This document shows, piece by piece, positions 9,716-45,799 of a stretch of DNA of 64,000 bases. How positions within the stretch are numbered: position 1 is the first letter of the stretch; each line of letters opens with the position of its first letter. Origin of the DNA: Rhizophagus irregularis. Lineage: Eukaryota. The DNA lies in the NCBI RefSeq assembly GCF_026210795.1, contig NC_089429.1:5890001-5954000 (forward strand). Direction: 5' to 3'. The notes below the pieces were generated by a model, which made no database searches, was not told the DNA's origin, and saw nothing but the letters and a program-made list of their open reading frames with translations. The position numbers and the translations under genes were made by a program.

Positions 9716-10250
9716 ATGAGTAATAATAATAATACCAAAAACTCTATAACTGATTTAATAAAGCCCAAAAAGAAGTATGTATATCCATGTCATTGTGTTC
9801 TTTGTAAAGGCGCAGAAGTTGATCCTCATACACAAGAGAAACATACAAGAGATAAAATTTTGTGGAGATCAGATGATGATGATTTAAGAAGAAATCAAAT
9901 AAATGCTATTGCAGCAAGAAAACAAAATAAACCTCATATTATCTTAGTTGAAAAAAACCTTGCGGGAGCCAGCTCAACTAAGAAACGCAAAAGAGACGAC
10001 AACCAGCAAATATCGCCCATTGAAAACTCAGCCGATTTAAGTATACCAAATGCATTTTTAAGTCCCATTATGTCATCATGTTTGGTTACACTAAAAAATC
10101 CACAACCGGATACTACATTAGATAACATGGTAAATGATGCATCAAAGTCCAAATCCTCATATTTTCATGATCTAGAACCTAACAATGAAAATAATAATGA
10201 GTATGATGATAATATTTGGGAAATGGAGTATGATGATGATATTAATAATA
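9716..10250 (+). pseudogene. 5' part of a probable EnSpm/CACTA-like transposase, truncated by the element starting at ~10251
   Basis: N-terminal PCHCVLC..VDPHTQEKH (CxCxxC..H) followed by an acidic stretch. The ORF tail (NILYRNLENL..) is read-through into the inserted terminus and recurs in ORF 43755-43964. Confidence 0.55.
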
Positions 10251-10354
10251 TACTTTACAGAAACCTTGAAAATTTGAGCGATGTTGAATTGATATGGATA
10301 CGATATAAATTTCATGTCATAATGGTATCAATTTCCGTGATGATATTGTTATAA

Positions 10355-10955
10355 TGTTGATTCGATATCGTTACTTCATCACCATAATTTATCGCGAAAA
10401 TATCGTGGCGATATCTATTTAAAAGAATATCAAATCGGCACAGTCTTGATATCATTACGATGTCAGTAATTTCAAAAAAAAAAGATGTAGTATTTTCGAT
10501 ATTGATTTGATATCGTCACTTCATCACCATAATTTATCACGAAAATATCGGGACAACATTTATTTAAAAGAATATCTGATCGGTATAGTCTTGATATCGT
10601 TACGATATTGTTAATTTCAGGGGAGAAAAAAGATGTATTTACGATATTGATATGATATCGTCACATTATCACCATAATTTATCGCGAAAATATCGTGACG
10701 ATATCTATTCAAAAGAATATCAAATCGGCACAGTCTTGATATCATTACGATATCAGTAATTTCAAAAAAAAAAGATGTAGTATTTGCGATATTGATTTGA
10801 TATCGTCACTTCATCCCCAATTTATCACCAAGATATCATGACAATATCTATTCAAAAATATCTAATCGGCACAGTCTTGATATCATTACGATGTCGGTAA
10901 TTTCAAATAAAAAAAAAAGTATTTACGATATTGATTTGATATTGTCACTTCATTG
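10355..10955. repeat. Left subterminal tandem array, ~145 bp x 4
   Basis: GATATCGTYACWT.ATCACCATAATTTATC-like motif recurs at 10364, 10509, 10654, 10799 and ~10938. Confidence 0.9.
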
Positions 10956-11689
10956 CCGCAACTCATTTGTGGTATCGCAACTCATCCGCAATACCGTAAA
11001 TATTAAACTTTATTTTTTTATAAATTAATAAAAAACTTTTAAATGTATAACGTGCTGTCATATTAATAAAATAAAATTCTGATATTTTATGCGATTTTGA
11101 GAAGCTATTACTGATAGAGTTGCGTTTTACCTTCTAATTTTAACATTGCATCCTTAAAACATACGAATATCGTCAAAAAATCCATGATTTCTCAATATTG
11201 ATTTTATTTGTGATTATCTAGAATTCAATTAAGTAATATTTTTAAGTAATATACATTAGTTATCTCAAAAAGTAACTTCTTCTTAATAGACTTAGAGAAT
11301 ACAATGTTGCAAAGCATCTTTTAACGCCAGATTGAGCTTGTGCATTCATACACCGTCATCCACCTTGTCTCCACGTACGATTTTAGACCTCCTCCTTGTA
11401 TATTTTTTAATTGAATAGCGCTTTAAGTAATGCCGCGCCTATAGCCGAATTTTTGAAAAATCTTGTGAGATTACATTTGCGCATTTAATCATGTCAGAAC
11501 TGATTAAATTAACGCAGCGCGCAATGCACCGTATATCGAGAATTGATGGATGATTTTGAGAGATAATTCGGCGGTGTGGTCCCATAGAGCTGATAAAATG
11601 ATCATGTGAATCTTAGAATAGATAACAAATAGAAGAAACAAAATTAAAATCAGAATATTAATAAAGAAATAATAATGAAATTTACCAAT

Positions 11690-11930
11690 CGTACAATTAG
11701 TTTCCTTAGCTAATTCATTATAGATTCGTAAATTTACACGAGCCAATTCAGCTTGTAATAACGTTCCACTTAAAATTTGTCGAGTTGGTAGTAGGTTGTA
11801 CGCTGGTTGTAAAGTTTTAATCATATCAATAAACCAAGGTTTTCAATAACACTAAATGGGATGCTACTCAATACTCATATCAAAAGCTTTAGTAACCGAA
11901 CGGTCAATAGCATCAAAATATCTCTTTTCC
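11690..11930 (-). pseudogene. Fragment of a hAT-like (DUF659-type) transposase; mirrored at ~42185-42425
   Basis: Translates as DAIDRSVTKAF..IPFSVIE~PWFIDMIKTLQPAYNLLPTRQILSGTLLQAE, with frameshifts. Confidence 0.6.
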
Positions 11931-12554
11931 AATTTGTTGTTTTTTTTGTTAAAATTTTGAATTGATGTATGTTCGTAATTTTGTCTTTGCTTTTATTTGG
12001 TGATTACCTCCAGTTTAATTAATCACGATATTGCAAATTAACTGTGATTAATTATGGTATTGCAGAATAATTGTAACGTTGCAGAATAAATGCGGTTGCG
12101 AAATTGCGAAAATTTAGACATCATAATTCGTAATGTTCGCAATATCATAACCGTCATCCTTAATTATAACAAAAAAAAAATTAATTTGCAAAAAATTAGA
12201 CTTTTGTTTATTTTATTACTAAAAGCATCATGTGGTATATTACAAAATTTCCTTGAATATTGAACTTCACGTGATATAAACCTACAATTAATCAAAAAAA
12301 ATCTTGATATCGCTAATATCGAAGCGGTATATCATGAAGACATCCCCATGGTTTTTTTTTTTGCTTTCCCTCCTACGTTCAAAAAAGATTTTTCAGAAAA
12401 ATTATAGATATTAAAAAATTGTTACGATGTGAAAACTGATAATTCCACGTGTATAAATATATATAATAATAAAAACATATAATACACAATATACCTTATT
12501 TCGCAATCGTGATTTTCTTTCATCATTACTACTCTCTTCATTATCAATGGAACG

Positions 12555-13850
12555 TCAGCGCCTATGTAATAGCGAGATAAGTCCAATGATCTTGCAACAT
12601 TTATTTTTTCAGCTACGAGCTGTCTTATCGTCTTTTTTTTAATTAAACATATAATCCAACAACATTTCGAAGAGCTTTTTTCATTTCTTCAGGTAATTCA
12701 TTTGAAACACACGTTAACCACTGACGAAATATAGCCAAAACTTCAAGGGGAAGATTGCGAAAATTAGCGCCAATACTACTACTATTTTGATACGCGCTAC
12801 CTATATTCAGCCACAATTCACTCCTCTTAAATTCCTAGCAGAATGGTCAAGATGCTGTACGAAGAAATAATGCTCTTAATTCAACGTATATGATGTTTGA
12901 TCCCCATTTGGGAGGGAACTATAACGTTGCTTTCTAATAATTCGCTCATCTATTTCTGACTTTATTCACTAGATCTTTGCTCTTGGGAAGGACTTCTGGG
13001 TAGTGACGGTCTTTAACAAAGTAACTCCAATTATTAATTAATAGTAGTTGTTCAAATTCGTCTCTATAATAAAAATTAAAATAGGTTCAAAATATATGAA
13101 TTATAAATATTACAGATTTATTATAATGATACGTAAATATATTTACCTTGGGAGTACGTGTTTGTGCATTTTCCAAACGCGGAGAACAATATGGAGAACT
13201 AGCCGGAGAAGATTCCATCGGAGTTGTTGATAATATAGGACTTTGGCTTTTCTTATATTGCCTTCCGGCAACCATATTGACGTATTCAGGAAAACAAGCC
13301 CAAACCGACTACTTAATTGCAAGATGATCTGACGCTTTACTCGTTATGTTCTCAATTCTTTCTTTTTTAACATTTCGTCTACAATTATTAGATAGATATC
13401 AAGGTAAGTGAATTATTCATATCATAAAAAGAAAGAATACTGAATATCAACTATAAGTCACCTATTTCTTTCTTGACCAATTTGAGGCGATGATAGATGA
13501 TAGAGCGATGATTGAGGTAGCGGCGACGATTGATACTCTTATAGCTATTGAGGTGTTGCGACCATTAAGGTTGAGATTGTTGAAGTTGTTGCGACCATTG
13601 AAGGTTGTTGAGGTTGTTGAGGTTGTTGAGGCCATTGAGATTGAGGTGGTTGCGGCCATTGAAATTGTTGAGGTTGAGATTGTTGAAATTGTTGAGGTTG
13701 TCGCGGCCACTGAAATAGAGTTTGGGGTTGAGATTGTTGCGGTTGTTGAGACTGAGGTTGTTGATATTGCGGTTGCGATGGCTGCCAATGTTTAATAAGC
13801 GAGCCTTTTTTACGAATTCCTTGTTCTTTATCAAAATCTTGAGAAGACAT
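12555..13850 (-). pseudogene. Q/P-rich spliced 'MSSQD..SLIKHW / ELRALFLRT' family gene, 3' exons decayed
   Basis: Starts MSSQDFDKEQGIRKKGSLIKHWQPSQP. A downstream exon reads FPPKWGSNIIYVELRALFLRT then hits stops. Paralogue of 19874-21672. Confidence 0.6.
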
Positions 13851-14039
13851 TTTAATGATAGTTAAAAAATGCAAGTCAAAAAAAAAACAAATATCTAAAT
13901 ATAAAAAAAAAAAGAAATAATTAATTGAATAAAAAAAAAAAATTTTTTTTATCCCTTTTTTTTTGCGTTGATCTTACCACATCATGATCGAAAAAAATTA
14001 ATTATTAGTTTTTAAATTATAAATTAAATTACAATTTTA

Positions 14040-15070
14040 CTAATTTAATATATAAACTTGCCTTTTGGGTAATTCCAGATTTAGAATAACTTCCTTGTCC
14101 GGAAAAACTGCTTCTCTTAATAGGCAATTGGATCCCTCAGGATCTTTTGGCAAATCGTACTCAAATTTGACAAATATGAGTTTCGTATTATTAATATTTA
14201 CATCAACAGAGAGATTTTTCACATTAAAAATAAAAATATCTACAATTAAACAGCTTTACCAAAAAAAAAGTAAATAAAATATTAATAAAAACAATTAATA
14301 TTAATATAAATAAACTAATATTAATACCTATTAATTTCGACTTCAAAAATATTGTAAGCTGGTAATTGTGATATTAATTTCGACTTCAAAAATATTGTAA
14401 GCTGGTAATTGTGATTGTGATGGTTGTGGTGATTGTGGTGGTGGGAGTTGTACCGGTGATGATTGTGGTGATTGTGGTGGTGGGAGTTGTAACGGTGATG
14501 ATTGTGGTGATGGTTGTGATAGGGGCGGCTGTACCGGGGATTGTAGTGATTGGTTTTGTGTATTCTAATTTTTTATAAAAAATTTTAATAAGTAATAATT
14601 CCTTCATTAATTTATATTTCATTAATGTAATAATAGTGCTTACAGATCGTCCATCATCATCGTCGTCATCATCATCATCATCATCATCATAATCATCATC
14701 ATCTCCTCCTTTTGGACGTGCTTCTGCGAACATGATTGTTTTACTTAGAGGTCCGATAAATTTTTTGTTTCTCACATAATTGTAAAATCTAGTTTTATCA
14801 TCATCATTTTCGAAGTGCACAAATCCATGCCTAAATATAACAAATGTTCATTTAATTAAATTATTAATTAAAAATTGTATATATTAATTATTTTATTTCA
14901 TTACCCCCAATCAGGATCCTTTCTGATATGTACAAAATTGTAAGAAAATCTATTCTTTAACCATCCCTTAACGTCTTTCGATTTTATCCCTTTTAACTCT
15001 TTCGTGTTCTTACCACCGAAGAAAACTGATAATTTATGATCACGACAACATTCATGTCTTTTCTTACCTA
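14040..15070 (-). CDS. Spliced RRM-like protein with poly-Asp and Q/P/S tracts and a possible HSP20-like C-terminal domain
   Basis: LSVFFGG (RNP2-like) ...DPDWG|HGFVHFENDDD (RNP1-like) across a GT-AG intron. Last exon reads KFEYDLPKD..AVFPDKEVILNLELPK. Start codon not located; a 42 bp internal duplication may disrupt it. Confidence 0.55.
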
Positions 15071-15234
15071 TATTATTATTAAATAAAATTAAAAATAATA
15101 AATTAATACTTTATATTAAAAAAAAGAAAAATGATTCATTCTTGATATATACTTTTTCATATAATATATTTGATTTCAATAAAGGAATATTAAATATCAT
15201 ATTTTAACAAAGGAATGGGAATGTTAAAGATGAA

Positions 15235-15410
15235 AGGAAACATATTTTAGCCTTTCGGGACGAAAGGAATCTTATTTTAGCCTTTCGTGACAAAAGGAAT
15301 CTTATTTTAGCCTTTTCGTGACAAAAGGAATATCGATTATTTTAACCAAGGATTTAGCCTTTCATGACGAAAGGAATATTTTAATTCAGCCTTTGTGACA
15401 AAGGAATAGC
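15235..15410. repeat. ~30 bp tandem repeat (TATTTTAGCCTTTCGTGACAAAAGGAATCT) x ~5 upstream of the RRM-like gene; mirrored at ~38710-38885
   Basis: Directly visible degenerate units. Confidence 0.8.
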
Positions 15411-15706
15411 AAGCAAATTTACTTACCCATTTTTCTTTGTTTACTAAATCTTACGAAACCCACATTCTTATTGTAATTCGAATGCAAAATTCGATAGATT
15501 TTATTGGTCAGTTAATGTTAATCATCATGTGAAATCAAATATTTTTTTTTTAGTCATACTCAAGTTTCACAAACCCAATTATATTGCACTATACGTCATA
15601 ATTACACATCTTAATTACAAAAAAACTTTTCGTGTCACTTATCAGTCCAATCAAAAATAAATAAACCGGATTTTGAACAGGCGTAACACGAGATTATATT
15701 TAAACG

Positions 15707-18150
15707 TAGGGATGTTAACGGTTCGGTCCATCTGGTTTTCGGTCCAAAAACTGGTGGTTTGAGTACAAAACCGAACCGTTATAGGTTTAGAACCGGAGTT
15801 TGAACCGAAGTTTGGACTGAAGTTTAGACCGAAGTTTAGACCGGATATTTATAGTATTTTATACAAAATTGTGTAATGCAGATCATGAATTTAAATATAT
15901 CGTATATCGTCAAAAAATTTTTTATTATAAGAAAAAAAATTACCAACAAAATTTCACATAATGTAAAAAAAAAGGAAAAAAAAAAGACATATTGCAAGTA
16001 TTGATTCAATTTTCCATTCTTTCTTTTTCTGATATCCAATTTTTCATGCATATAATTGCCCTTGCCGTTTCAGGATCTAACCTATTTCTAGTTTTTGAAA
16101 TAGTTAATCCCGAAATTGAAAATGCCCTTTCTGATGAAACCGACGTTGCTTGGATTGTTAAATAATCCTTAGCTATTTGAGATAGTACTGGGTAATCCTT
16201 TTCATAAGTTTTCCACCAAATTAAAGAACCTGTATTACTATCTACTGGAGAATTTAAGTATCGATCTAATTCATCATGCGATACTTCTTGACGAATATTA
16301 TTTGGATTAAGTAAATTAAGAAAATAATCACGAGATGATCATGCTGGTGCTGATGGTATGGTTTGATTATTTAAGGGTAAATATGACAAATATAATTCTT
16401 GTAATTTACTAATAATTTCAGTTATATCATTATGACTAAATAATGTGGTTTTGTAGCGTGGATCTAATATTGAAGAAGTAATGGAAGATTGATTCAAATA
16501 TTTGTCCCAATAGGCTTTCAATTTATTACAAATTGCTGATGCTATTGCCTTTTGTGTATGGTGATTTCCTCTTTGATAATGATCCAATTTTTTAAACATT
16601 CCATTAAAAACCAATCTTATATCACCTTGTGTAGGATTTTTTGATGATGATAATAAATTGGTTGCTTCATACATAGGTTCTAATACCTTTGCTAATTCCT
16701 GTAAAAAAAAATAATAATTAATAAATATATAATTATAAAATAAAATAAATAATAATTTATAAAATAAAAAATACCTTAATATATCGCCATTCAGATATTG
16801 TTGGAAATAAATCTCCAAGTTCTTCAACATTTGTTGTTGCAAGTAATTCTGAAACACCCTGCATTAAGATTTGTCTATTAATCATAAAATATGTGGAATT
16901 CCAGCGAATGTCTATATCTAAAATTGGTTTAAGAAATTTAACTTTTTTAAGGGTACAAATTTCTGATAATTTATCCAAAAATAATGGTGAATTCTTGATT
17001 TTAACAACAAATTGACGAAGTTTTTTGATTTCATTTCCAACATGACTCATTCCTGCTTTTACTGCTAAATTTATAATATGTGCAGCACATCTGTAATGAG
17101 TAAAAGCCATATTATTAAACTCCTGATCTAATTCAGTTGCTAGTTGATTACCACATGCTATCATGTTGCTTCCATTGTCTGTAGTTAATGCAAGAATATT
17201 ATTACTGATACTAAACTCTTCAAGAATTTGTAAAAGCTTGCTAGTAATTAACCCAGCTGTATGAGAACCATTTACAGGAATTAAATCAAGTAAGAGATTT
17301 TTTAATTCCCAATTGTTGTTAATATAATGCATTGTTACTCCAAGATAACAATCTTTTGAGATTTCTGAAGTCCAAATATCAGTAGTAAGAGAGATTTTTG
17401 AGTTAATTTGTGAGACTTCATTAATTAACACATTTTTTCTCATTTTATAATTTTCTATGAATTTTTCCTTTAAGGTTTGTCTGCAAGGTAAAATATAGTG
17501 GGGATTCAATTTATTAATTAATAATTTGAATTCAGGATTTTCAACAATGGTAAAAGGTTGCAAATCAGTTGCAACAAAATCAACCAAAGAATCTGTGATA
17601 GGTTTAGATTTTGATGGAGAGTAAGGTTTAAAACGTAAAGTAGTTTGGCGGGTTTCAGGTTTTTTATAATGTGATGGATGTTTTTTAGTTAAATGACGTC
17701 GAAGTGTAGATGTTGGATTACCAGGTGAATAAAGTTTTGCACACAAAATACACTTATAGTTTGTAATTAACCAACTTTCCTCATCTTGAATTTTTTGAAA
17801 AAACTCCCAAACATCTGCTGACAATTTCTTATTTATAATTCTTTCATCATCAGATGCTAAGGAATCATCTGATAAATTATTATCGTCATTTTCAAAAACT
17901 CCCGACATAGTTGTAATAATGCAAGGTGATATAAAAAAATGTAAGAATGTAAAATCCGTTATTCTTTTATTGTAAAAAGTTACGCGTGCAGATACACGTA
18001 ACCGTTAATTGAACCGATCTAAAACCGGTTCACTAAACCGGTTTCTATCGGTTCAGTCTCGGTTTGGTTTGACGTTTGAACTGAACTGAAACCGGTCCTA
18101 TGATCAAACTGCGGTTCGAACCATCCAATCATAAACTGTTAACATCCCTA
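15707..18150 (-). mobile_element. Full-length hAT transposon, 2444 bp
   Basis: TIR TAGGGATGTTAAC(G/A)GTT. Perfect 8-bp TSD TTTAAACG at 15699-15706 and 18151-18158. AACCG-rich subterminal repeats. Confidence 0.96.
16006..17908 (-). pseudogene. hAT transposase (BED zinc finger, DDE, C-terminal dimerisation domain) with one premature stop
   Basis: Motifs VWEFF..CILC..LRRHL..H, TTDIWT, TDNGSN, CAAHIINL, RWNST, LDPRYK, WWK..YPVLS, SVSSERAFS. Intron at 16699-16774. In-frame TGA at 16339-16341. Confidence 0.92.
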
Positions 18151-19873
18151 TTTAAACGGTACGGTAACACTATTGGCTTTAGCCTTTAAGCAATGTGACG
18201 AAAATTATACCCTACCTCCCGCTGTCAACACCTTCTTCACCAAGAATATTATATTCTTCGAGAGATGTGTTAATATCTATGACGAACAACAACTGGCTAA
18301 TTCCTTACAACCATCCAGTATAAAGAGGCCTGTAAAATTTGTAAGTATTTTGGCCATTCTGTAAAAAGTTGCCCCAATTTAAAATCGCAGTTTTGATGGG
18401 GTAATTATTGTATACGCTGCTGGAAAGCTGGGCACAACAGTAGTGAATGTAAAAATGAACTGGAGGTCGTGCCGTTCAACGAAGAGTTTCGTTCTCCAGA
18501 AGAAATTGTAAATTTTTTGATTTATAAATAGTTTATTTTTTTTAAAAAAAAATTTTGAAATTTTTTTTTTTCTTACAAAATTTACCATGAGTTGCTGGTA
18601 GCAGTGGCAAATTTCGAAAGTTTATCTGGGCCGTGGTGGCAGGGTGAACTTTTTTTTTTATACTTTTATTGTATGAAATATTTTTCAATTTTTACAACCT
18701 AATAAAGAGTTAACGGACATTTTTTGAATATCATCTTGAATGCCAAATTGATATGGTGATAATGTTAAATTCATATTGCAGAAAATATAAAAAAAAATTG
18801 TTCAATATGGAAGTCAGTAATTTGATGGATCAGTGATGTCAGAATCAACATCGGAAGTACATATTGAAAGATCACGTCGTATTTTGATAAATTTATTGAT
18901 GTCGCGACGTTATAACCAGAAGTACTTGGAAAATCACAGTTAACTGTGTAGAGGCTTCCATTAAACGAGAAAAATTTTTCATGTGCTGCGTCATTGCTCC
19001 TCTTCCAAATTAATGATTTCTGCTTGTCTGGTTGATTGAGATTGTTGTCTCCTCTTCAAAATGTGGACACCTGGGCAATATTGTAAACGAGGTAGTTGTT
19101 CATCCTCATAAGGATATTGCAATCGAAATGGTCTGTAATTACGTCCAAATTCAGGATAATATTGTGATTGAGGTTTATAAATGGATTGTTGTTGCCGTTG
19201 ATATTGCTGATGATGTTGTTGTAGATGTTGTTGGTGAAGTTGATGTTGATGTTGCTGTTGCTGTTTTTAAAAATAACCTTCACGATTAACTCAATTTAAT
19301 ATTTTATTATTGTATTATAAAATCCAATATACTAATAAAAATGATTTGATTTATTTTAAAAAAACACTGCATGATATCTTCGTGATATCGGTTTGTAATT
19401 GTAAAAAAATTATCTAAATGATATCGTCGTGATGTTTCATAATTGTACCAAAAAAAATCTAAATGATATCGCCGTGTTCGATTCAGTTAAAGAATGTGAA
19501 TGAATGTTCGTTAATTTTGGTTGCAAATTTGAAGTTTTATTTTGGCAATAATGTTATACAATAGAAATAAAAATGATAAAAAATATACTATCTACCCGTC
19601 TTCTTTTAGATTGTGAAAGTAAAAATATATATATATATATATATATATAGATACAAAGAAAAAAATTATTGTTGTAGTAACAATGATAATTATAATCATT
19701 TGACCTGGTTTTTAAAATGATGGTTTTTTACATAGAATTTTTTTTTTAAAAAAAAAAGAAAAATTTGTTTTATAAATTTACATACGAACCTCTCATCAAA
19801 CTTCAACACACGACCAGATACTTTACTTTTCTACGCTAAAAATTTAAATTGAAAAAAATCTACATAATATATA

Positions 19874-21672
19874 TTATTTTTTTCGCTTTTTAGTAGATTT
19901 CTTTGATTTCGGCTTTGGTTCATCCTCAGAGCTGGAATTTGAATCATCATCATCATTATTTTCAATTTCATACTTTGATAAATCAATCAAAGAACCAATA
20001 TTATATCCAGATAAATTGTTAAAAATATTATTAACCGTATAAAGGTTTCCGGTGTGAGTAAAAAAACGGTCACGTGCATCACTGTTATAAATTTCTAAAC
20101 AGTGGAATCCAACATGAATTAAATTTTTAAGCGAATTTTCATTTTCTTGAGATATCGGCTTGTCCGAAAATTTCAACCAAAGGTTGAATATTTCTTCAAT
20201 ATGACGACCTTTTAAGTACGGCTTGAAATCAAGACTTTCGTCTTTTTCTTTACGTTTTTGATAAGTTTCGTATCTAAGCTTGATGTTATCCCATAATGTA
20301 TTTCTCCAGTACGACCAGGTTTTACGAAAACTTTTTGCTACATTATGTAATATGTCAGGATGATCGTTCATAAAAGTTGGTAACAATGACGCTAAGAAAT
20401 CTTCTATAATTTGATTATTGTTGCTTTTATCTAAGTTTCTTGTTCTTAGGAATAATGATTTTAATTCGTTAATCACTATTATTCTTAACCACTTTGGGAT
20501 AGAGTTTTGCAACGATATAATATTAGAAATTCTCTTCTGGTTATATGATATATTTGTATCACGATCTGTGAACTTTTCAGGAGAATTTGCATAAGGGCAA
20601 ATCGATGTTGGATATCTTCGATTCTTGAGATAGAATTTTGGCAGCTGTAAGCCTGAGCTTAAGAGTTCTTCTTCCATATCATCCCTAATTTTTAAAGAAA
20701 ACATTGTTATATGAAGATTACAAGATGATAAATATGAAAAAAATATATTTGTTACATTGGATTCATCCGAGGGAGAGTTGAAGATGTAACAGAAGGTATA
20801 GCAATACCAAGAGAAGAAGTACTAGTACTACTTTGAGTTATAAGAGGAATTTCTTCCAAGGTATCCCTAATTTTAAAAAACATTATGTTAATATGAAGAT
20901 TATAAGATTATAAATATGAAAAAATCATATTCGTTACATTGAATCCGTCCGTGTGAGAGTTGGGGTTGTCATAATAGGTGTAGACGATGAGGAAGTGCGG
21001 CTTCGTTCTTCACTAGAACGCTTGCCTCTGTGGATCATCTGCTCGATTTGATCATGTAAATGTTCGAGGAGCGTCATGGCAAAGCGTTCTGCAATAGATT
21101 GTCGGACATAAACAGGATTAACGGCTCTGGACATGATGTCCTCGATTTGTAGAAATAGTGTAGCGAGTAAATTATCTATATGATAGAAATAACGTTACAA
21201 GTTATTGTTCTGTTATTGAAGATTTCTTCAAATACCGAATATTATAATAATACAGACCAATTTCTTCATCAGAAAGTAATTGTGTTGAAGGATGCTGCAA
21301 GTGTTGTGAGGAATACGAGGGGTATGGAAGCTGTTGTTGTGACGAGGGGTATGGAGACTGTTGTTGTGACGAGGGGTATGGAAGCTGTTGTTGTGACGAG
21401 GGGTATGGGTACAAGGGGTATGGAGAATGTTGCCGTGACGAAAAACGTTGAGAGGGATATGGATACTGTTGCTGTGACGAACGTAAGGAAGGTAAAAGTT
21501 GAGATGATTGAGATAAATATTGTTGTGACCATTGAGGTTGAGATTGCGATTGCGAAGGCGATTGCGAAGGCGATTGCGAAGGCGGTTGCGAAGGTTCCCA
21601 ATGCTTAATAAGAGAGCTCCGTCTATGACTTTCTTTTTCTTGTACAGGCTTATTACGATCTTGAGAAGACAT
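19874..21672 (-). CDS. Spliced 'MSSQD..SLIKHW / ELKSLFLRTRN' family protein, unknown function
   Basis: ORFs 21202-21672, 20934-21134, a short exon at ~20757-20866 and 19874-20686, with GT-AG boundaries. Q/P/S-rich N-terminus, helical core, acidic then Lys-rich tail. Confidence 0.7.
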
Positions 21673-22883: not shown

Positions 22884-23480
22884 GGGATGATATTGAAAAA
22901 AGCTTGTTGAAGCTGGATTATCGTTACCATTAAAATATCTGGAAATTTGATCATTTTTCAAAATTTGATTTGACGAATCGTTCAAGTACATCGTTCCTAA
23001 ATAATGGCTTCAATTCGCCGAAAATTATCTTTCTAATCCACTTCGGTAGTGATTTGTACGACTCAAAAAGCAAACGTGCCATTTGAGCTTGAGTAATGCT
23101 GCCTGAATTGTGTGGATCGATGAATTCTTTTTAAGGATACGCTGACGTGTTACAAATTTATAATAATTTGCATAACGTCCTTTGGAAGAAATTAGTAGAA
23201 AGGTACATTAAATATAAAAATAGTAAAGAGAAGATTAAGCCGAATGTAAATCTAAAGAATCGACAAATTAAGGAAAATACTAACGGAGGAGAATGAGAGC
23301 GCACTTAAAATCTCATCATCTTTGGGTTTTATTGTATTGAGAATTTATAAGATGCGCACGACAAATTTTTCTCATTTTACGGAAGCCTTTTCACAGTTAC
23401 TTGTGATTTTCCAAGCTCTTCGAGATATAATATTGCGGCTTCTATGGATTTATCAAATTTTTATGTAGTCTTTAAATAAT
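22884..23480 (+). pseudogene. Decayed paralogue of the last exon of 19874-21672
   Basis: TTAG|GGATGATATTGAA reads DDIEK~LVEAGLSLPLKYL, versus DDMEEELLSSGLQLPKFYL in the paralogue; later IVPK*WLQ versus SIPKWLR. Confidence 0.4.
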
Positions 23481-30123: not shown

Positions 30124-30252
30124 ACTATGATATCCAATTGAAAATATTATAAAAGCAGTTAATGAATTAAATACACAAACGCGCATGGACATTTTTTAAA
30201 TTTATGATTTTATTTCATTTTATTATTCCTTATTATAATTATTGTCATAGCC

Positions 30253-33200: not shown

Positions 33201-33821
33201 AGGAAATGAAGAAGGTTTGTATTACAATTTTATAATAATAATATTTCCGCAATTATTAACGTATTTTTATTTTATATAGCGATTTCATCTCCAGTGGATT
33301 TTATTACAAATATTATCTTAAAGAGGAGCTTATCCCGTCAGGATCGCGAAAATATCATGAAAAATTTGCCAAATTTCAAATCTGAGCTGCTTCTTTCATT
33401 TATGGACATTGGACAAAAGTCAGCTCTTATATATTCTCAAATGAGCTGGTATGAATTGGCGACATACACTATGGAAGAAAGCGATGGCGTATTTTCCAAA
33501 GTACATCTTCATATTGGTGACGTCGTAACAATACACGAGGAAGACAGTGGTGAATGTTATGCGATTATAAAAGGGATCTTCAAATACAAAGGCAATGATG
33601 ATAAATATTATGCCTTTATTACTATTGATTGGTTTGACAATATTAACAGAATTCACAACGTATTGAAATGTCCTCTTTTTCGCATTCAGACAAGCCAAGA
33701 CATTCGCTGGAGAAGAATCTTCCCGATATCAATAATTGACCACGTACAGAAAGTTCACTTTGTCTATGATACGAAAATTGATTTGTGGATAAAAAATAAT
33801 TATTATTTTACGGCTATATAG
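30253..33821 (+). CDS. CMC/EnSpm-like (Plavaka-related) DDE transposase with a BAH-like C-terminal region
   Basis: Motifs LDIYYDDFGTFRN..LGGVY..GNMP, TADLPQGN, GCRTC, DVYH, LPNLH..H, GIKEMVH. Introns 31234-31321, 32313-32392, 32775-32856 and 33215-33279 splice in frame. One -1 frameshift near 30597 in the DDLEQRS repeat. Confidence 0.8.
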
Positions 33822-34469
33822 CTTTATTATGCAGTACAATGATTCTTTTCGGTATATTTATTTATGATAACGTGATTTATTAAATAAATAAAGATAACGA
33901 TATCGTTACGATATCGTTTGATATCGTATTCATGAATTTATTAGGCACGTGACTTTGCAATTTTTATCCAATCAAATCATTGTTTGTTAGACATGTTAAA
34001 CATTCGCACGATTATGTTTACGTCTACATCTCTCTATTCAATTTTTTTAAATTTTTTTTTAATACCGAAAAACATTTTGACAGTTTTTGTTATCAACAGT
34101 ATAATTTATTCAAAAAAATATATTCATATTAACAATTACAGTCAGACCACTGTATATGCGCGTCTATTTTTATTCCGGCGTACGACAGGTACATATTCTG
34201 CTCTCGCTGGGTTATGTTAAACTATCTTTGACATTTATATAACGCGTCAAAAATAATTACGCGTTCAGTTTTAATAGTTTTTACCTTTTTATAATAATTT
34301 TTTTTTCATATCAATACCCAAAGAAAAAGAATAAAGGGAAAGAAGAAGAAAAAAGAAAAAAACCATTGTGAAAAAACGAAAAAGAGAAAACAAAGGAACG
34401 AAAAGAAAGAGAGATTATCCTGAAATTTTTTCACAAAAGGTACTACTGTACTTGGGGATCATTCGAGGG

Positions 34470-34712
34470 TTTTTTTTTGGCCGCTGATGAAATGCACCAT
34501 TTTTAAGACCTCTATATGGTAGGCCGTATCATGGAGGCAGGGTATGCACATAGCGAAAGCGCCGTACTCCTATGTAATACTTGGGATCTTGTGGTATCAG
34601 AAGGTAGTGGTGATGTATCATTGGTCATAGGCAGTTGGGTACTAATGGCTGACGACCTAAGGGACACTCTAATGAGGTAGGCCCCGCCGGATGAGCTCAA
34701 CCCACTTATTGC
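34470..34712 (-). other. GC-rich ~240 bp island ending in poly(A) on the minus strand; possible SINE-like insert
   Basis: Sharp GC rise, T9 tract at 34470-34478, no credible ORF, no clear TSD. Confidence 0.3.
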
Positions 34713-35134
34713 ATTTTTTGATTCTTAAGGTTGAAAATCTTGGTCAAGTGTTCTGAGACCAATTTTTATTTTAAAAAAAAATTTCGTTTGATTTCTATAA
34801 ATGCAGTACTTTAATTTATGCATCTTTTTTAGGATTAACAACCAGCATTTGCAATGACTTTAATAAATCTTAAGAACTATCATTTAATTAGGTTGGTTTG
34901 TATCTTCAACTCCTGTATTTTCTCATGGACAACTATATGTTGCATGTTCAAGAATAACATCAAGAAAAAATTTAAATAATTAAATTTTTACTTTATTTCA
35001 AGTTTAGGTTTTAACCATTAACTGCTAATGTAGTTAACAGGTGAATCCTAGTAGTATTTAATATTTGTGACGAAATCCGATAATGTTGTGCGTAACTACT
35101 CCATTATGTTATAACGATATCGTCACGTTGGTTT

Positions 35135-35570
35135 ATATTAACCATCCGGGGAGAGAGAGATGTGTCTAATTTACCAGGTACGATCGTATCTTTAATTTCG
35201 CAGAAACTTGCACCATAATCCGTGTACTTATTAATTTAACAATTGTCACAAAGTTTCGATACAATATTAGTGTCATAACAGTTAACCATCTGGAGAGAGA
35301 GAGATGTCTAATTTACCAGGTACTTATCTTTAATTTCGCAGAAACTTGCGTTGTATGTAATACAGACTCTTGTCAATTCAGTATTTGGTATAATATTAGT
35401 GTCTTATGTTAACCGTCGGAGAGAGAAGTAATTTACCAGGTGCGTCGTAATCAGGAAACTTACATCAATTCAACATTTATAATATTATTGTCATACCGAT
35501 ATTGTCGCATTGTTTTATGTTACTAGAGAGGGATGCGCCTACATAATTTACCAAGTACGATTAAACTTCG
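35135..35570. repeat. Degenerate ~130-145 bp tandem repeat x 4
   Basis: TTAACC..GGAGAGAGA..TAATTTACCAGGT units near 35138, 35282, 35409 and 35520. Confidence 0.75.
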
Positions 35571-35851
35571 CAATACTTATCAATTCAACAATTGTGAATC
35601 AATAATGACGGAACGTGACTACTTCAAGCTGTAATAACAATGATATCGATACGTTGTTTTTATTTTTCATTTTGACCATCATAATTGCATATTAATAATA
35701 TATACGGCATTATCAATTAATAAAAATTATTGAATGTACTAGTACCTACGGTTCACAATTTTTTCATGACCCAAAATTCTTGTCAAATATCATCTTGATA
35801 CTGTGTAAATGTCGTCCTGATATCTTAATAATATTTTTAAATGAAATAATA

Positions 35852-36420
35852 TTTTTAAATGATATCGTAACAGTACGGTTTGATAATTATATCGATACAT
35901 TTTCAACATCATCGCAACATCTTCACGATAACATCACGATTTTTAAATGATATCGTAACAGTACGGTTTGATAATTATATCGATACATTTTCAACATCAT
36001 CGCAACATCTTCACGATAACATCACGATTTTTAAATGATATCGTAACAATACGGTTTGATAATTATATCGATACATTTTCAACATCATCGCAACATCTTC
36101 ACGATAACATCACGATTTTTAAATGATATCGTAACAATACGGTTTGATAATCATAACGATACATTTTCAACATCATCGTAACATTTTCACGACGACATCA
36201 TGATTTTTTTGAAGATATCGCGACGATATAGTTATGATAGTCTTAACGATACCTTTCCAACATCTTCGCGATATTAAATTACGAAATCAATATGATATCG
36301 TTCTGATATCAAAATGTTACCGATTTTAATATCGCGAAGATGTTGGAAAGGTATCGTTAAGACTATCATAACTATATCGTCACGATATCTTCAAAAAAAT
36401 CATGATGTCGTCGTGAAGAT
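35852..36420. repeat. Right subterminal array: 88 bp x ~4.5 followed by a ~90 bp-arm hairpin
   Basis: GATATCG recurs at 35861, 35949, 36037, 36125 and 36214. 36186-36278 is inverted at ~36326-36417. Confidence 0.92.
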
Positions 36421-36472
36421 GTTGAAAATGTATCATTAAAATATTGTGGCAAATTTGAAGATTTCAGCAAAG

Positions 36473-38409
36473 TACTTTACGTTTTAAACCTTACTCTCCA
36501 TCAAAATCTAAACCTATCACAGATTCTTTGGTTGATTTTGTTGCAACTGATTTGCAACCTTTTACCATTGTTGAAAATCCTGAATTCAAATTATTAATTA
36601 ATAAATTGAATCCCCACTATATTTTACCTTGCAGACAAACCTTAAAGGAAAAATTCATAGAAAATTATAAAATGAGAAAAAATGTGTTAATTAATGAAGT
36701 CTCACAAATTAACTCAAAAATCTCTCTTACTACTGATATTTGGACTTCAGAAATCTCAAAAGATTGTTATCTTGGAGTAACAATGCATTATATTAACAAC
36801 AATTGGGAATTAAAAAATCTCTTACTTGATTTAATTCCTGTAAATGGTTCTCATACAGCTGGGTTAATTACTAGCAAGCTTTTACAAATTCTTGAAGAGT
36901 TTAGTATCAGTAATAATATTCTTGCATTAACTACAGACAATGGAAGCAACATGATAGCATGTGGTAATCAACTAGCAACTGAATTAGATCAGGAGTTTAA
37001 TAATATGGCTTTTACTCATTACAGATGTGCTGCACATATTATAAATTTAGCAGTAAAAGCAGGAATGAGTCATGTTGGAAATGAAATCAAAAAACTTCGT
37101 CAATTTGTTGTTAAAATCAAGAATTCACCATTATTTTTGGATAAATTATCAGAAATTTGTACCCTTAAAAAAGTTAAATTTCTTAAACCAATTTTAGATA
37201 TAGACATTCGCTGGAATTCCACATATTTTATGATTAATAGACAAATCTTAATGCAGGGTGTTTCAGAATTACTTGCAACAACAAATGTTGAAGAACTTGG
37301 AGATTTATTTCCAACAATATCTGAATGGCGATATATTAAGGTATTTTTTATTTTATAAATTATTATTTATTTTATTTTATAATTATATATTTATTAATTA
37401 TTATTTTTTTTTTACAGGAATTAGCAAAGGTATTAGAACCTATGTATGAAGCAACCAATTTATTATCATCATCAAAAAATCCTACACAAGGTGATATAAG
37501 ATTGGTTTTTAATGGAATGTTTAAAAAATTGGATCATTATCAAAGAGGAAATCACCATACACAAAAGGCAATAGCATCAGCAATTTGTAATAAATTGAAA
37601 GCCTATTGGGACAAATATTTGAATCAATCTTCCATTACTTCTTCAATATTAGATCCACGCTACAAAACCACATTATTTAGTCATAATGATATAACTGAAA
37701 TTATTAGTAAATTACAAGAATTATATTTGTCATATTTACCCTTAAATAATCAAACCATACCATCAGCACCAGCATGATCATCTCGTGATTATTTTCTTAA
37801 TTTACTTAATCCAAATAATATTCGTCAAGAAGTATCGCATGATGAATTAGATCGATACTTAAATTCTCCAGTAGATAGTAATACAGGTTCTTTAATTTGG
37901 TGGAAAACTTATGAAAAGGATTACCCAGTACTATCTCAAATAGCTAAGGATTATTTAACAATCCAAGCAACGTCGGTTTCATCAGAAAGGGCATTTTCAA
38001 TTTCGGGATTAACTATTTCAAAAACTAGAAATAGGTTAGATCCTGAAACGGCAAGGGCAATTATATGCATGAAAAATTGGATATCAGAAAAAGAAAGAAT
38101 GGAAAATTGAATCAATACTTGCAATATGTCTTTTTTTTTTCCTTTTTTTTTACATTATGTGAAATTTTGTTGGTAATTTTTTTTCTTATAATAAAAAATT
38201 TTTTGACGATATACGATATATTTAAATTCATGATCTGCATTACACAATTTTGTATAAAATACTATAAATATCCGGTCTAAACTTCGGTCTAAACTTCAGT
38301 CCAAACTTCGGTTCAAACTCTGGTTCTAAACCTATAACGGTTCGGTTTTGTACTCAAACCACCAGTTTTTGGACCGAAAACCAGATGGACCGAACCGTTA
38401 ACATCCCTA
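36473..38409 (+). mobile_element. 5'-truncated copy of the hAT element (lacks the BED finger and one TIR)
   Basis: Begins mid-gene. Intron at 37341-37417, same premature TGA at 37775, true stop at 38108-38110, TIR ends at 38409. Confidence 0.93.
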
Positions 38410-39046
38410 CGTTTAAATATAATCTCGTGTTACGCCTGTTCAAAATCCGGTTTATTTATTTTTGATTGGACTGATAAGTGACACGAAAAGTTTTTTTGTA
38501 ATTAAGATGTGTAATTATGACGTATAGTGCAATATAATTGGGTTTGTGAAACTTGAGTATGACTAAAAAAAAAATATTTGATTTCACATGATGATTAACA
38601 TTAACTGACCAATAAAATCTATCGAATTTTGCATTCGAATTACAATAAGAATGTGGGTTTCGTAAGATTTAGTAAACAAAGAAAAATGGGTAAGTAAATT
38701 TGCTTGCTATTCCTTTGTCACAAAGGCTGAATTAAAATATTCCTTTCGTCATGAAAGGCTAAATCCTTGGTTAAAATAATCGATATTCCTTTTGTCACGA
38801 AAGGCTAAAATAAGATTCCTTTTGTCACGAAAGGCTAAAATAAGATTCCTTTCGTCCCGAAAGGCTAAAATATGTTTCCTTTCATCTTTAACATTCCCAT
38901 TCCTTTGTTAAAATATGATATTTAATATTCCTTTATTGAAATCAAATATATTATATGAAAAAGTATATATCAAGAATGAATCATTTTTCTTTTTTTTAAT
39001 ATAAAGTATTAATTTATTATTTTTAATTTTATTTAATAATAATATA

Positions 39047-40075
39047 GGTAAGAAAAGACATGAATGTTGTCGTGATCATAAATTATCAGTTTTCTTCGGT
39101 GGTAAGAACACGAAAGAGTTAAAAGGGATAAAATCGAAAGACGTTAAGGGATGGTTAAAGAATAGATTTTCTTACAATTTTGTACATATCAGAAAGGATC
39201 CTGATTGGGGGTAATGAAATAAAATAATTAATATATACAATTTTTAATTAATAATTTAATTAAATGAACATTTGTTATATTTAGGCATGGATTTGTGCAC
39301 TTCGAAAATGATGATGATAAAACTAGATTTTACAATTATGTGAGAAACAAAAAATTTATCGGACCTCTAAGTAAAACAATCATGTTCGCAGAAGCACGTC
39401 CAAAAGGAGGAGATGATGATGATTATGATGATGATGATGATGATGATGACGACGATGATGATGGACGATCTGTAAGCACTATTATTACATTAATGAAATA
39501 TAAATTAATGAAGGAATTATTACTTATTAAAATTTTTTATAAAAAATTAGAATACACAAAACCAATCACTACAATCCCCGGTACAGCCGCCCCTATCACA
39601 ACCATCACCACAATCATCACCGTTACAACTCCCACCACCACAATCACCACAATCATCACCGGTACAACTCCCACCACCACAATCACCACAACCATCACAA
39701 TCACAATTACCAGCTTACAATATTTTTGAAGTCGAAATTAATATCACAATTACCAGCTTACAATATTTTTGAAGTCGAAATTAATAGGTATTAATATTAG
39801 TTTATTTATATTAATATTAATTGTTTTTATTAATATTTTATTTACTTTTTTTTTGGTAAAGCTGTTTAATTGTAGATATTTTTATTTTTAATGTGAAAAA
39901 TCTCTCTGTTGATGTAAATATTAATAATACGAAACTCATATTTGTCAAATTTGAGTACGATTTGCCAAAAGATCCTGAGGGATCCAATTGCCTATTAAGA
40001 GAAGCAGTTTTTCCGGACAAGGAAGTTATTCTAAATCTGGAATTACCCAAAAGGCAAGTTTATATATTAAATTAG
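39047..40075 (+). CDS. Second copy of the RRM-like gene
   Basis: Mirror of 14040-15070. Confidence 0.55.
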
Positions 40076-40263
40076 TAAAATTGTAATTTAATTTATAATT
40101 TAAAAACTAATAATTAATTTTTTTCGATCATGATGTGGTAAGATCAACGCAAAAAAAAGGGATAAAAAAAATTTTTTTTTTTTATTCAATTAATTATTTC
40201 TTTTTTTTTTTATATTTAGATATTTGTTTTTTTTTTGACTTGCATTTTTTAACTATCATTAAA

Positions 40264-41560
40264 ATGTCTTCTCAAGATTTTGATAAAGAACAAGGAATTC
40301 GTAAAAAAGGCTCGCTTATTAAACATTGGCAGCCATCGCAACCGCAATATCAACAACCTCAGTCTCAACAACCGCAACAATCTCAACCCCAAACTCTATT
40401 TCAGTGGCCGCGACAACCTCAACAATTTCAACAATCTCAACCTCAACAATTTCAATGGCCGCAACCACCTCAATCTCAATGGCCTCAACAACCTCAACAA
40501 CCTCAACAACCTTCAATGGTCGCAACAACTTCAACAATCTCAACCTTAATGGTCGCAACACCTCAATAGCTATAAGAGTATCAATCGTCGCCGCTACCTC
40601 AATCATCGCTCTATCATCTATCATCGCCTCAAATTGGTCAAGAAGAAATAGGTGACTTATAGTTGATATTCAGTATTCTTTCTTTTTATGATATGAATAA
40701 TTCACTTACCTTGATATCTATCTAATAATTGTAGACGAAATGTTAAAAAAGAAAGAATTGAGAACATAACGAGTAAAGCGTCAGATCATCTTGCAATTAA
40801 GTAGTCGGTTTGGGCTTGTTTTCCTGAATACGTCAATATGGTTGCCGGAAGGCAATATAAGAAAAGCCAAAGTCCTATATTATCAACAACTCCGATGGAA
40901 TCTTCTCCGGCTAGTTCTCCATATTGTTCTCCGCGTTTGGAAAATGCACAAACACGTACTCCCAAGGTAAATATATTTACGTATCATTATAATAAATCTG
41001 TAATATTTATAATTCATATATTTTGAACCTATTTTAATTTTTATTATAGAGACGAATTTGAACAACTACTATTAATTAATAATTGGAGTTACTTTGTTAA
41101 AGACCGTCACTACCCAGAAGTCCTTCCCAAGAGCAAAGATCTAGTGAATAAAGTCAGAAATAGATGAGCGAATTATTAGAAAGCAACGTTATAGTTCCCT
41201 CCCAAATGGGGATCAAACATCATATACGTTGAATTAAGAGCATTATTTCTTCGTACAGCATCTTGACCATTCTGCTAGGAATTTAAGAGGAGTGAATTGT
41301 GGCTGAATATAGGTAGCGCGTATCAAAATAGTAGTAGTATTGGCGCTAATTTTCGCAATCTTCCCCTTGAAGTTTTGGCTATATTTCGTCAGTGGTTAAC
41401 GTGTGTTTCAAATGAATTACCTGAAGAAATGAAAAAAGCTCTTCGAAATGTTGTTGGATTATATGTTTAATTAAAAAAAAGACGATAAGACAGCTCGTAG
41501 CTGAAAAAATAAATGTTGCAAGATCATTGGACTTATCTCGCTATTACATAGGCGCTGACG
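40264..41560 (+). pseudogene. Second copy of the Q/P-rich MSSQD family gene
   Basis: Mirror of 12555-13850. Confidence 0.6.
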
Positions 41561-43154
41561 TTCCATTGATAATGAAGAGAGTAGTAATGATGAAAGAAAA
41601 TCACGATTGCGAAATAAGGTATATTGTGTATTATATGTTTTTATTATTATATATATTTATACACGTGGAATTATCAGTTTTCACATCGTAACAATTTTTT
41701 AATATCTATAATTTTTCTGAAAAATCTTTTTTGAACGTAGGAGGGAAAGCAAAAAAAAAAACCATGGGGATGTCTTCATGATATACCGCTTCGATATTAG
41801 CGATATCAAGATTTTTTTTGATTAATTGTAGGTTTATATCACGTGAAGTTCAATATTCAAGGAAATTTTGTAATATACCACATGATGCTTTTAGTAATAA
41901 AATAAACAAAAGTCTAATTTTTTGCAAATTAATTTTTTTTTGTTATAATTAAGGATGACGGTTATGATATTGCGAACATTACGAATTATGATGTCTAAAT
42001 TTTCGCAATTTCGCAACCGCATTTATTCTGCAACGTTACAATTATTCTGCAATACCATAATTAATCACAGTTAATTTGCAATATCGTGATTAATTAAACT
42101 GGAGGTAATCACCAAATAAAAGCAAAGACAAAATTACGAACATACATCAATTCAAAATTTTAACAAAAAAAACAACAAATTGGAAAAGAGATATTTTGAT
42201 GCTATTGACCGTTCGGTTACTAAAGCTTTTGATATGAGTATTGAGTAGCATCCCATTTAGTGTTATTGAAAACCTTGGTTTATTGATATGATTAAAACTT
42301 TACAACCAGCGTACAACCTACTACCAACTCGACAAATTTTAAGTGGAACGTTATTACAAGCTGAATTGGCTCGTGTAAATTTACGAATCTATAATGAATT
42401 AGCTAAGGAAACTAATTGTACGATTGGTAAATTTCATTATTATTTCTTTATTAATATTCTGATTTTAATTTTGTTTCTTCTATTTGTTATCTATTCTAAG
42501 ATTCACATGATCATTTTATCAGCTTTATGGGACCACACCGCCGAATTATCTCTCAAAATCATCCATCAATTCTTGATATACGGTGCATTGCGCGCTGCGT
42601 TAATTTAATCAGTTCTGACATGATTAAATGCGCAAATGTAATCTCACAAGATTTTTCAAAAATTCGGCTATAGGCGCGGCATTACTTAAAGCGCTATTCA
42701 ATTAAAAAATATACAAGGAGGAGGTCTAAAATCGTACGTGGAGACAAGGTGGATGACGGTGTATGAATGCACAAGCTCAATCTGGCGTTAAAAGATGCTT
42801 TGCAACATTGTATTCTCTAAGTCTATTAAGAAGAAGTTACTTTTTGAGATAACTAATGTATATTACTTAAAAATATTACTTAATTGAATTCTAGATAATC
42901 ACAAATAAAATCAATATTGAGAAATCATGGATTTTTTGACGATATTCGTATGTTTTAAGGATGCAATGTTAAAATTAGAAGGTAAAACGCAACTCTATCA
43001 GTAATAGCTTCTCAAAATCGCATAAAATATCAGAATTTTATTTTATTAATATGACAGCACGTTATACATTTAAAAGTTTTTTATTAATTTGTAAAAAAAT
43101 AAAGTTTAATATTTACGGTATTGCGGATGAGTTGCAATACCACAAATGAGTTGC

Positions 43155-43755
43155 GGCAATGAAGTGACAATATCAAATCAATATCGTAAATACTTTTTTT
43201 TTTATTTGAAATTACCGACATCGTAATGATATCAAGACTGTGCCGATTAGATATTTTTGAATAGATATTGTCATGATATCTCGGCGATAAATTGGGGATG
43301 AAGTGACGATATCAAATCAATATCGCAAATACTACATCTTTTTTTTTGAAATTACTGACATCGTAATGATATCAAGACTGTGCCGATTTGATATTCTTTT
43401 GAATAGATATCATCACGATATTTTCGCGATAAATTATGGTGATAATGTGACGATATCATATCAATATCGTAAATACATCTTTTTTCTCCCTGAAATTAAC
43501 AATATCGTAACGATATCAAGACTATACCGATCAGATATTCTTTTAAATAAATGTTGTCCCGATATTTTCGCGATAAATTATGGTGATGAAGTGACGATAT
43601 CAAATCAATATCGAAAATACTACATCTTTTTTTTTGAAATTACTGACATCGTAATGATATCAAGACTGTGCCGATTTGATATTCTTTTAAATAGATATCG
43701 CCACGATATTTTCGCGATAAATTATGGTGATGAAGTAACGATATCGAATCAACAT
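43155..43755. repeat. Mirror of the 145 bp subterminal array
   Basis: Explains the repetitive spurious ORF 43303-43797. Confidence 0.9.
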
Positions 43756-43858
43756 TATAACAATATCATCACGGAAATTGATACCATTATGACATGAAAT
43801 TTATATCGTATCCATATCAATTCAACATCGCTCAAATTTTCAAGGTTTCTGTAAAGTA

Positions 43859-44560
43859 TATTCTCCCGATTGGCTTTGTCCACAATGCAACTCAGCTCCT
43901 GAAGATTTGAATCATCTTTGGACTTGTCCTTATATTCTTCCAGATTTAAATCCGTGTTTGACACATCGTTCTGAAATTATCAAATTCAGAGATTCCTGTT
44001 TATCTTCGTTCTCATCTCTGAAACCTCTGGATATTACCTTCCAAACTGGATTCTCTGCTCTAGATTGTTGGAACTATGAATCTCCTTCTCCGTCCTGTCT
44101 TTGGCTTACTAGAGGATTATTACCTGCGCATTTAACAGCATTTTTACATCAACAATTTCCTCTCTTTGTCATATATAAGATTATTTCTCCTCTTCTTAAT
44201 GACTTCCAAGTCGCACTTTATGGTGAGATTTGGTTGTGTTGGAATGTTCTTTTCCATGCTTGGGAGGAGTCACAGGGTATCTCGGCTGCTTCCAAATTAC
44301 GTGGCCTGTCTATAAATTTCTCTTCTTTTGCTACTTCTTCTTCACAAAAACACAACTCTTCTTTGGCGACAGTTTCTCAGGATTCCTGGATTTCTTGGAT
44401 ATCCTCTTCTATAATTCGGAGTGGATCATGGATCTCGCACTTGGATTTTCTGCGCCGCTTAACAGTTCAACCTCTTAGGATTTCTTTCTGGTAACGGACT
44501 GGATTTTTGGATGTTGAATAGTTGACTCACACTGGCCTTCGGGTAAAGTTGGGGTATGCG
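43859..44560 (+). mobile_element. 3' remnant of a non-LTR retrotransposon (C-terminal CCHC zinc knuckle region and 3' UTR)
   Basis: YSPDWLCPQCNSAPEDLNHLWTCP (Cx2C-x8-H-x3-C), then YGEIW..WE; ORF ends at 44494. Cut at its 5' side by the transposon terminus. Confidence 0.75.
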
Positions 44561-45763: not shown

Positions 45764-45799
45764 CCACCATTCGATTCGTCTCAGTGAGACGATTCTAAT

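Follow-up and report, generated by a model that had tools for sequence, protein, structure and literature searches.

A 26-kb DNA transposon of the arbuscular mycorrhizal fungus Rhizophagus irregularis whose right end adjoins an inverted partial copy of itself

Introduction

In the genome assembly of the arbuscular mycorrhizal (AM) fungus Rhizophagus irregularis, a large DNA transposon, here called element E, runs at its right end straight into an inverted and near-identical copy of its own left part. The structure is found in a stretch of 64,000 nucleotides (NCBI RefSeq assembly GCF_026210795.1, contig NC_089429.1, positions 5,890,001 to 5,954,000 of the forward strand), which is referred to as the window and supplies all coordinates given below; its protein homologues assign the sequence to Rhizophagus. 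The inverted join is a real feature of the assembly. As to its origin, the account that we prefer, and in which confidence and doubt are about equally balanced, is that the right end of E was inserted by the transposase into a copy of E itself, and that an unrelated flank was afterwards brought in when the product recombined, by homology, with an older second copy. In AM fungi, transposable elements have been proposed to generate variation, and individual events are rarely resolved.

Architecture of the locus

The structure was checked on the assembled sequence alone. A BLAST comparison of the window with itself aligns positions 10247-17647 with 43862-36468 on the minus strand over 7,402 columns, with 99.74% identity, 11 mismatches and 8 gaps. 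One of the 11 mismatches, at 17643, lies beyond the junction, and exact arm homology extends from a common AATA at 10247 up to 17642. Within the arms there are 10 substitutions, all of them transitions, and 8 single-base indels, all of them in homopolymer runs. The two arms, A and B, are consequently 99.7% identical copies in inverted orientation around a spacer of 18,830 bp. Arm B holds the 3' part of a nested hAT transposon (up to about 38409), which in its intact form encodes a BED finger and a hAT RNase H domain. There are two left ends of E, at 10253 and 43856, and both point outward. The second of these and the right end at 36472 are each turned rightward, and constitute a directly oriented pair.

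The right terminus of E (..TTTCAGCAAAG-TA) ends at 36474 and is followed directly by inverted hAT coding sequence. The TA at 36473-4 corresponds to the hAT's own TA at 17641-2. Outside the arms, the sequence on the left encodes the N-terminal part of an EnSpm/CACTA transposase, 96% identical to the protein P0121; a relative, P0123, matches PF02992 above the cut-off. P0121, the closest homologue, reads DDDINNI|DQEE at the point of interruption, and in the window the frame breaks off behind the ATA codon for Ile, in which the TA is contained. The right flank is the C-terminus of the second open reading frame (ORF2) of a long interspersed nuclear element (LINE), with 72 homologues and up to 89% identity to reverse transcriptase/RNase H proteins. 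A Leu precedes the first Tyr in 31/31 of those of the 72 homologues that have a searchable motif, and a Leu codon ending in TA would be compatible with the TA at 43857 being LINE sequence. Host homologues continue through the TA at both left ends.

An earlier note on this DNA, made from the letters alone, had described most of this arrangement: the near-identical inverted copy of the left 7.4 kb, the right terminus abutting the hAT gene of that copy, the two outward left ends, the spacer of about 19 kb, and the unrelated outer flanks that argue against a simple insertion with giant terminal inverted repeats (TIRs). All of this is borne out. The directly oriented end pair and the mosaic of the arms, described below, were not part of it.

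Three simple explanations can be set aside. A single insertion with giant TIRs is ruled out by the outer flanks, which are two unrelated targets, an EnSpm gene on the left and a LINE on the right; the 33.6-kb unit therefore did not insert as a single piece. A foldback or amplification chimera alone would yield an inverted EnSpm flank rather than a LINE, and no CpG differences. Insertion into a solo hAT is ruled out since arm B runs beyond the hAT end and its duplication as far as the full left end of E.

Element ends and target duplication

The ends of E were defined from relatives. A scan of metagenome contigs with the terminus pattern gave 21 loci, 20 of them AT-rich; one locus (L013, 45% GC) was left out as a chance match, and another (L001) is without flank. 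All 20 AT-rich loci match from CTTT onward, and the bases preceding CTTT in the 13 distinct flanks vary (TA 6, TT 2, AA 2, AT 2, AC 1). E therefore starts at CTTT and is preceded by a TA that belongs to the host. The variable dinucleotide in the relatives rules out TACTTT as the terminus, and the earlier claim of a precise right terminus is to be amended to this extent: the end is precise, the TA is not part of it, and the element runs from CTTT to AAAG.

Eight of the loci (L002, L003, L004, L005, L014, L016, L017 and L020; 6 distinct) are short, non-autonomous relatives of 60-279 bp that are preserved at both ends and carry left-type TIRs at each of them, so that left-left pairs appear to be usable in relatives. 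A perfect 2-bp duplication (TT, TA, TA, TA) flanks 4 of the 6 distinct elements. The target duplication is read from these relatives, the flanks of E itself being rearranged. With ends of this type and a 2-bp duplication, each of the three junctions at the locus becomes a precise end of E next to a TA of the host, the outcome to be expected if a transposase joins ends with a 2-bp stagger. The terminus pattern was found at 0 loci in viral contigs and at 3 loci in prokaryotic genomes, the latter with no transposase match, and 0/24 of the terminus-pattern loci include the transposase of E.

Divergence along the arms

The arms are not uniformly similar along their length. Nine of the 10 substitutions are found between 10539 and 11587, within the outer 1.35 kb, and one is at 15795, a clustering with p=1.9e-6 when sites are weighted by length and p=1.4e-4 when they are weighted by CpG content. 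With T or A taken as the derived state, each arm has 5 derived changes, and 7/10 of the sites are at CpG. A high level of CG methylation has been described at most transposable-element loci of R. irregularis (PMC8647823). The inner 6 kb has 1 substitution, compared with 18.5 expected for two independently aged copies (P=1.7e-7), where the expected number of arm differences is scaled from the rate in the element body. Taken together, the outer divergence and the inner near-identity indicate that the outer ends are likely to be two older, separate insertions and that the inner part was copied recently. The simplest reading of the inner 6 kb would be a recent copy, made after the arrival of the hAT. 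As a whole, the mosaic could stem from an older second insertion that was joined through homology, from gene conversion at a later time or from a switch in the assembly. That a single consensus was entered twice is ruled out, since the indels of the arms differ along the full length.

The mosaic also bears on the mechanism that had been put forward in the earlier note, namely self-insertion or alternative transposition together with an adjacent deletion. The first part is upheld by the precise join of the right end at TA. An adjacent deletion made by the transposase is less well supported because it predicts one age along the whole length of an arm, and 9/10 of the substitutions are in the outer 1.35 kb.

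Reads from other samples

Twenty sequencing runs from 8 studies contain 0.75-0.78 of the words of 35600-45500, and none comes near 1.0. The share of this stretch that is not hAT is about 0.80, so these samples are likely to hold E and much of the LINE-side flank and to be without the hAT. Reads from 4 of 24 runs were compared with the window over 28001-37300. The depth over the element body is about 65, 110, 220 and 450-500x in the four; on the hAT side, 36681-36990 has <1% of that depth and 36991-37300 has 1-3% in each of them. This hAT, and at element depth also the junction, is thus missing from the elements of these samples, so that both seem peculiar to the lineage of the window. The window differs from the 4 runs by at least 13 fixed differences; every one is a C>T or G>A change on the side of the window, and 6 of them are at CpG. 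The runs are thus unlikely to come from the source isolate, and a missing junction in them is no refutation.

Origin of the rearrangement

In the sequence of events that we prefer, two copies of E would first have inserted independently, one in the EnSpm gene and one in the LINE, and would have aged through C>T change. A hAT would then have inserted into one of the two. Next, the transposase would have joined a right end to the TA within the hAT of a sister or neighboring copy in inverted orientation, either by nested insertion or by hybrid-end or sister-chromatid transposition. Finally, an exchange somewhere from 11,588 to about 15,700, in the coordinates of arm A, would have joined this structure to the other old left end, with the intervening DNA deleted or relocated. 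Either flank could be the incoming one, the two cases being interchanged whenever the spacer inverts. What results would be a complete E together with the directly oriented pair of right and left ends at 36472 and 43856.

Several observations count against this sequence of events. The outer parts of the arms have 9 differences where 4.1 are expected from the body rate (P=0.026), an excess which indicates that the mutation rate is uneven; the body rate itself rests on at least 13 differences and is a lower bound. Two of the 6 distinct short relatives have no perfect duplication. Separate full copies of E at either target site were seen in no genome. The hAT target site resembles the ends of E itself, which fits models of microhomology or of a cryptic end. 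Among the rows listed, the 36474 junction is found at element depth in 0/4 runs. Lastly, single-base indels set the assembly apart from all 4 samples, those at 30595 and 34453 among them; they look like long-read errors left uncorrected, and the resolution of repeats in the assembly may be imperfect.

Of the other explanations, an assembly chimera is the one that survives best, even if it is improbable. Here a nested element in the LINE, with one copy inside the hAT of another, and an ordinary copy at a different locus, in the EnSpm gene, would have been merged by an assembler that switched inside the 26-kb repeat; the self-insertion would be real and the "deletion" would not. The repeat is long, its family is multi-copy and residual indels are present, and a switch would be expected to produce just such a step in divergence as is found near 11.6 kb. 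On the other hand, reads anchored in a unique flank should carry the alleles of that copy beyond 1.35 kb, and the independent indels between the arms extend over the whole of their length.

We regard as marginally less probable still an old self-insertion with an adjacent deletion made by the transposase, in which gene conversion during flipping of the spacer would recently have erased the inner differences. The three junctions, all exact ends at TA, are what such an event would leave, derived changes are present in the outer part of both arms, and inverted copies are known to recombine in rice (PMC3239180). What stands in its way is the length of the conversion tract required, 4-6 kb, and the age of the hAT, which would have to be as old as the outer divergence, yet is nearly absent from 4/4 samples.

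The least probable of the alternatives, and to our mind quite unlikely, is that a cryptic end, or else microhomology, was provided by the hAT site, with cutting or pairing by the transposase at AAAG-TA, a mimic of the right end. In one version, a 7.4-kb unit from the left end to the cryptic end would have been moved or copied beside the true right end; in the other, a break would have been repaired through annealing at CAAA-x-TA. The likeness is close: the site matches the right-TA-left junction at 12/13 bases and is the best such 13-mer on both strands of E, CTTTRC follows only 2/5,072 TA sites, and the site is tied first among 5,071 TA sites in gapped TIR likeness. The pattern was, however, picked after the junction had been seen, and AAC stands just before the target dinucleotide in 4/13 natural flanks, so that some of the resemblance may simply reflect which targets are ordinarily preferred. 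The LINE flank would still need a second step.

Element E and its family

The transposase of E has one frame break, near 30595, which is absent from 4/4 of the other samples. Its exons, aligned without gaps, are 94-100% identical to the proteins of a large family, multi-copy in Rhizophagus, whose members come from R. irregularis and R. clarus and are labeled in databases as "BAH domain-containing protein". Across 50 aligned relatives, D465/D466 are conserved in 46-47, D549 in 49 and E820 in 38 (with 11 gaps), while C568 is conserved in 46, C571 in 44 and H796 and H800 in 47; a catalytic role is assigned to these residues by motif. The transposase profile gives a weak match to the EnSpm Tnp2 core (E=7e-4, probability 26%). 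A low-confidence model of the protein (mean predicted local distance difference test score, pLDDT, 51) gives weak Foldseek matches to RAG1 (E about 3e-3, template-modelling score, TM, 0.13-0.15) and, for the BAH domain, matches with E=4e-5. A search of PDB sequences with the profile returned no meaningful match. Only 1/50 of the relatives matches PF18759, the Pfam Plavaka family, at 25.1 bits, which is under the cut-off of 26.3, so that 0/50 reach it.

The CMCT clade includes EnSpm/CACTA, Mirage, Chapaev, Transib, Plavaka, ESTA as well as Lanisha, and is characterized by a DDE transposase bearing the motifs C(2)C and H(3-4)H, a target duplication of 2-5 bp and, in most members, 5'-CA..TG-3' termini (PMC12730594). 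Fungal members of about 30 kb exist (PMC12730594, Table S1). E would belong to this clade by its catalytic motifs and 2-bp duplication, to which subterminal repeats and, tentatively, the weak RAG1 fold matches may be added as points of likeness, although its termini do not have the CA..TG form. The CTTT..AAAG ends also differ from TGT..ACA in PlavakaA, CATCA..TGATG in PlavakaB and CAC..GTG in EnSpm (PMC12730594). In contrast to ESTA, in which the TA target is obligate (PMC12730594), E and its relatives have a preference for TA, found in 6/13 distinct flanks. From Plavaka, whether A or B, it is set apart both by its termini and by the lack of any relative at the PF18759 cut-off. The termini of E may tentatively be taken as undescribed, being distinct from the lineage termini given in the available text of PMC12730594 and its supplementary Table S1, which was searched; no paper combining CTTT, a 2-bp target site duplication and EnSpm was found in the literature. 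Plavaka/CMC families are abundant and recently expanded in R. irregularis (PMC11075540, PMC8647823). E resembles them in being CMC-type and from the same species group, and its family may already be among the libraries of these studies.

E also carries genes other than the transposase. An ORF at 19874-20821 has homologues close to CTTT left ends at three metagenome loci, and relics of it are present near 12.7, 18.9 and 23.0-23.4 kb; from this distribution it is likely to be a conserved accessory gene of the family. Two similar Q/P/S-rich genes, at about 13850 and about 21672 and both on the minus strand, start with MSSQD, and their likeness suggests an internal duplication within E. An exact direct repeat of 263 bp (27065-27327 and 27776-28038) is found in a repeat-rich stretch upstream of the transposase. 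Between the species labels, the R. clarus protein P0217 and the R. irregularis protein P0005 are 98.3% identical over 906 residues of the transposase, with no gaps. Horizontal transfer is a possible explanation for this identity.

Comparison with maize and rice elements

Double Ds and sesqui-Ds are rearrangements of maize transposons. Like maize Ac/Ds, E has an end joined into or beside its own copy, inverted partial copies and a directly oriented 5'/3' pair, and by analogy the right/left pair would resemble the chromosome-breaking Ds pairs of maize. Two inverted Ds elements in rice undergo both alternative transposition and homologous recombination, with inversions by homologous recombination accounting for 11% of the rearrangements (PMC3239180), and recombination between inverted copies, seen there for Ds, is what we infer for E. 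Sister-chromatid transposition has been found to make composite insertions with an inverted, fractured Ac (10.1101/2020.01.07.897926). E differs from Ac/Ds in that its transposase is of the CMCT clade rather than hAT, in its length of 26 kb and in its fungal host. It also differs in having two different targets as outer flanks, with signs of a second, older copy, and in that no excision footprint or reciprocal product is seen within the window. A literature search for "sesqui-Ds" found no paper, and among the matches listed for Rhizophagus and inverted duplication there was no title on a structure of this kind.

Features of the window

The coordinates of the features discussed are collected in Table 1. 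Elsewhere in the window, an imperfect palindrome of 295 bp at 5664-5958, which begins with CACTGG and ends with CCAGTG, resembles a miniature inverted-repeat transposable element. Just after the 3' end of the LINE, at 44700-45800, is a GC-richer stretch (40% in the 44001-46000 bin). On the minus strand, an ORF of 1,532 codons at 52882-57480 encodes a URGCP-like very large GTPase, and fragments at 62182-63918, judged by eye, resemble a second, degenerate hAT-type transposase.

Table 1. Features of the rearranged locus, in window coordinates
Feature	Position	Strand	Remarks
EnSpm/CACTA (Tnp2-type) transposase gene, 5' part, host target 1	9716..10252	+	Cut at left end 1
TA target dinucleotide, left end 1	10251..10252		Dinucleotides before CTTT vary in relatives
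Arm A	10251..17642	+	7,392 bp; 9/10 substitutions relative to arm B in its outer ~1.35 kb
Element E, complete DNA transposon, putatively of the CMCT clade	10253..36472	+	26,220 bp; CTTT..AAAG ends; termini from metagenome relatives
Left subterminal tandem array	10354..10953		145-bp unit, 4.2 copies, CpG-rich
Divergence-change interval	11588..15794		Last outer substitution 11587, next 15795; inferred boundary of exchange or conversion
Nested hAT transposon, intact	15707..18150	-	2,444 bp; TIR TAGGGATGTTAAC; 8-bp duplication TTTAAACG
Intact target site AAAG-TA-GTTT	17636..17647		Best mimic of the right-end/TA/left-end junction within E
Spacer (rest of E)	17643..36472	+	18,830 bp; predicted invertible
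Accessory ORF (likely)	19874..20821	-	No Pfam match; homologues near CTTT left ends in 3 metagenome loci (L001, L011, L018)
E transposase gene	30253..33821	+	Multi-exon; motifs DDE, C(2)C and H(3)H; BAH domain at the C-terminus
Right subterminal repeats	35851..36423		88-bp tandem array and palindrome
TA at putative self-insertion junction	36473..36474		Right end of E joined to hAT coding sequence
Arm B	36473..43858	-	7,386 bp; inverted copy of left part of E; left end 2 at 43856
TA and LINE ORF2 3' end, host target 2	43857..44494	+	Cut at left end 2

Significance

The class of rearrangement described here has long been known from maize, and the present locus is a fungal example of 26 kb. The less ordinary part is the family of E itself, with its CMCT-like motifs, unusual termini, conserved accessory gene and 98% protein identity across species labels. 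Its ends and target duplication are now defined, for what is an abundant family of Rhizophagus transposases annotated as "BAH domain-containing protein".

If the rearrangement is real, it represents alternative transposition and copy-to-copy recombination in an AM fungus, and the locus that it leaves is testable and may be unstable, having a directly oriented pair of ends and a spacer that is predicted to invert. Inversion of the spacer through recombination of the arms is plausible by analogy, and is predicted only to swap which arm carries the full element. The pair at 36472 and 43856 would be a substrate for sister-chromatid transposition as in Ac/Ds and, were the transposase active, would be predicted to promote further breakage or rearrangement, and the two outward left ends might mobilize the 33.6 kb as a unit.

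A broader proposal, which we consider doubtful, is that E represents an undescribed CMCT lineage of large (24-26 kb) elements with CTTT..AAAG ends and an accessory gene, which would move within and between Rhizophagus species, target mimics of their own junctions, and build both chromosome breakers that resemble double Ds and macro-transposons with two left ends. Were it true, this lineage would offer a tangible origin for structural variation in a fungus that has for a long time been regarded as clonal.

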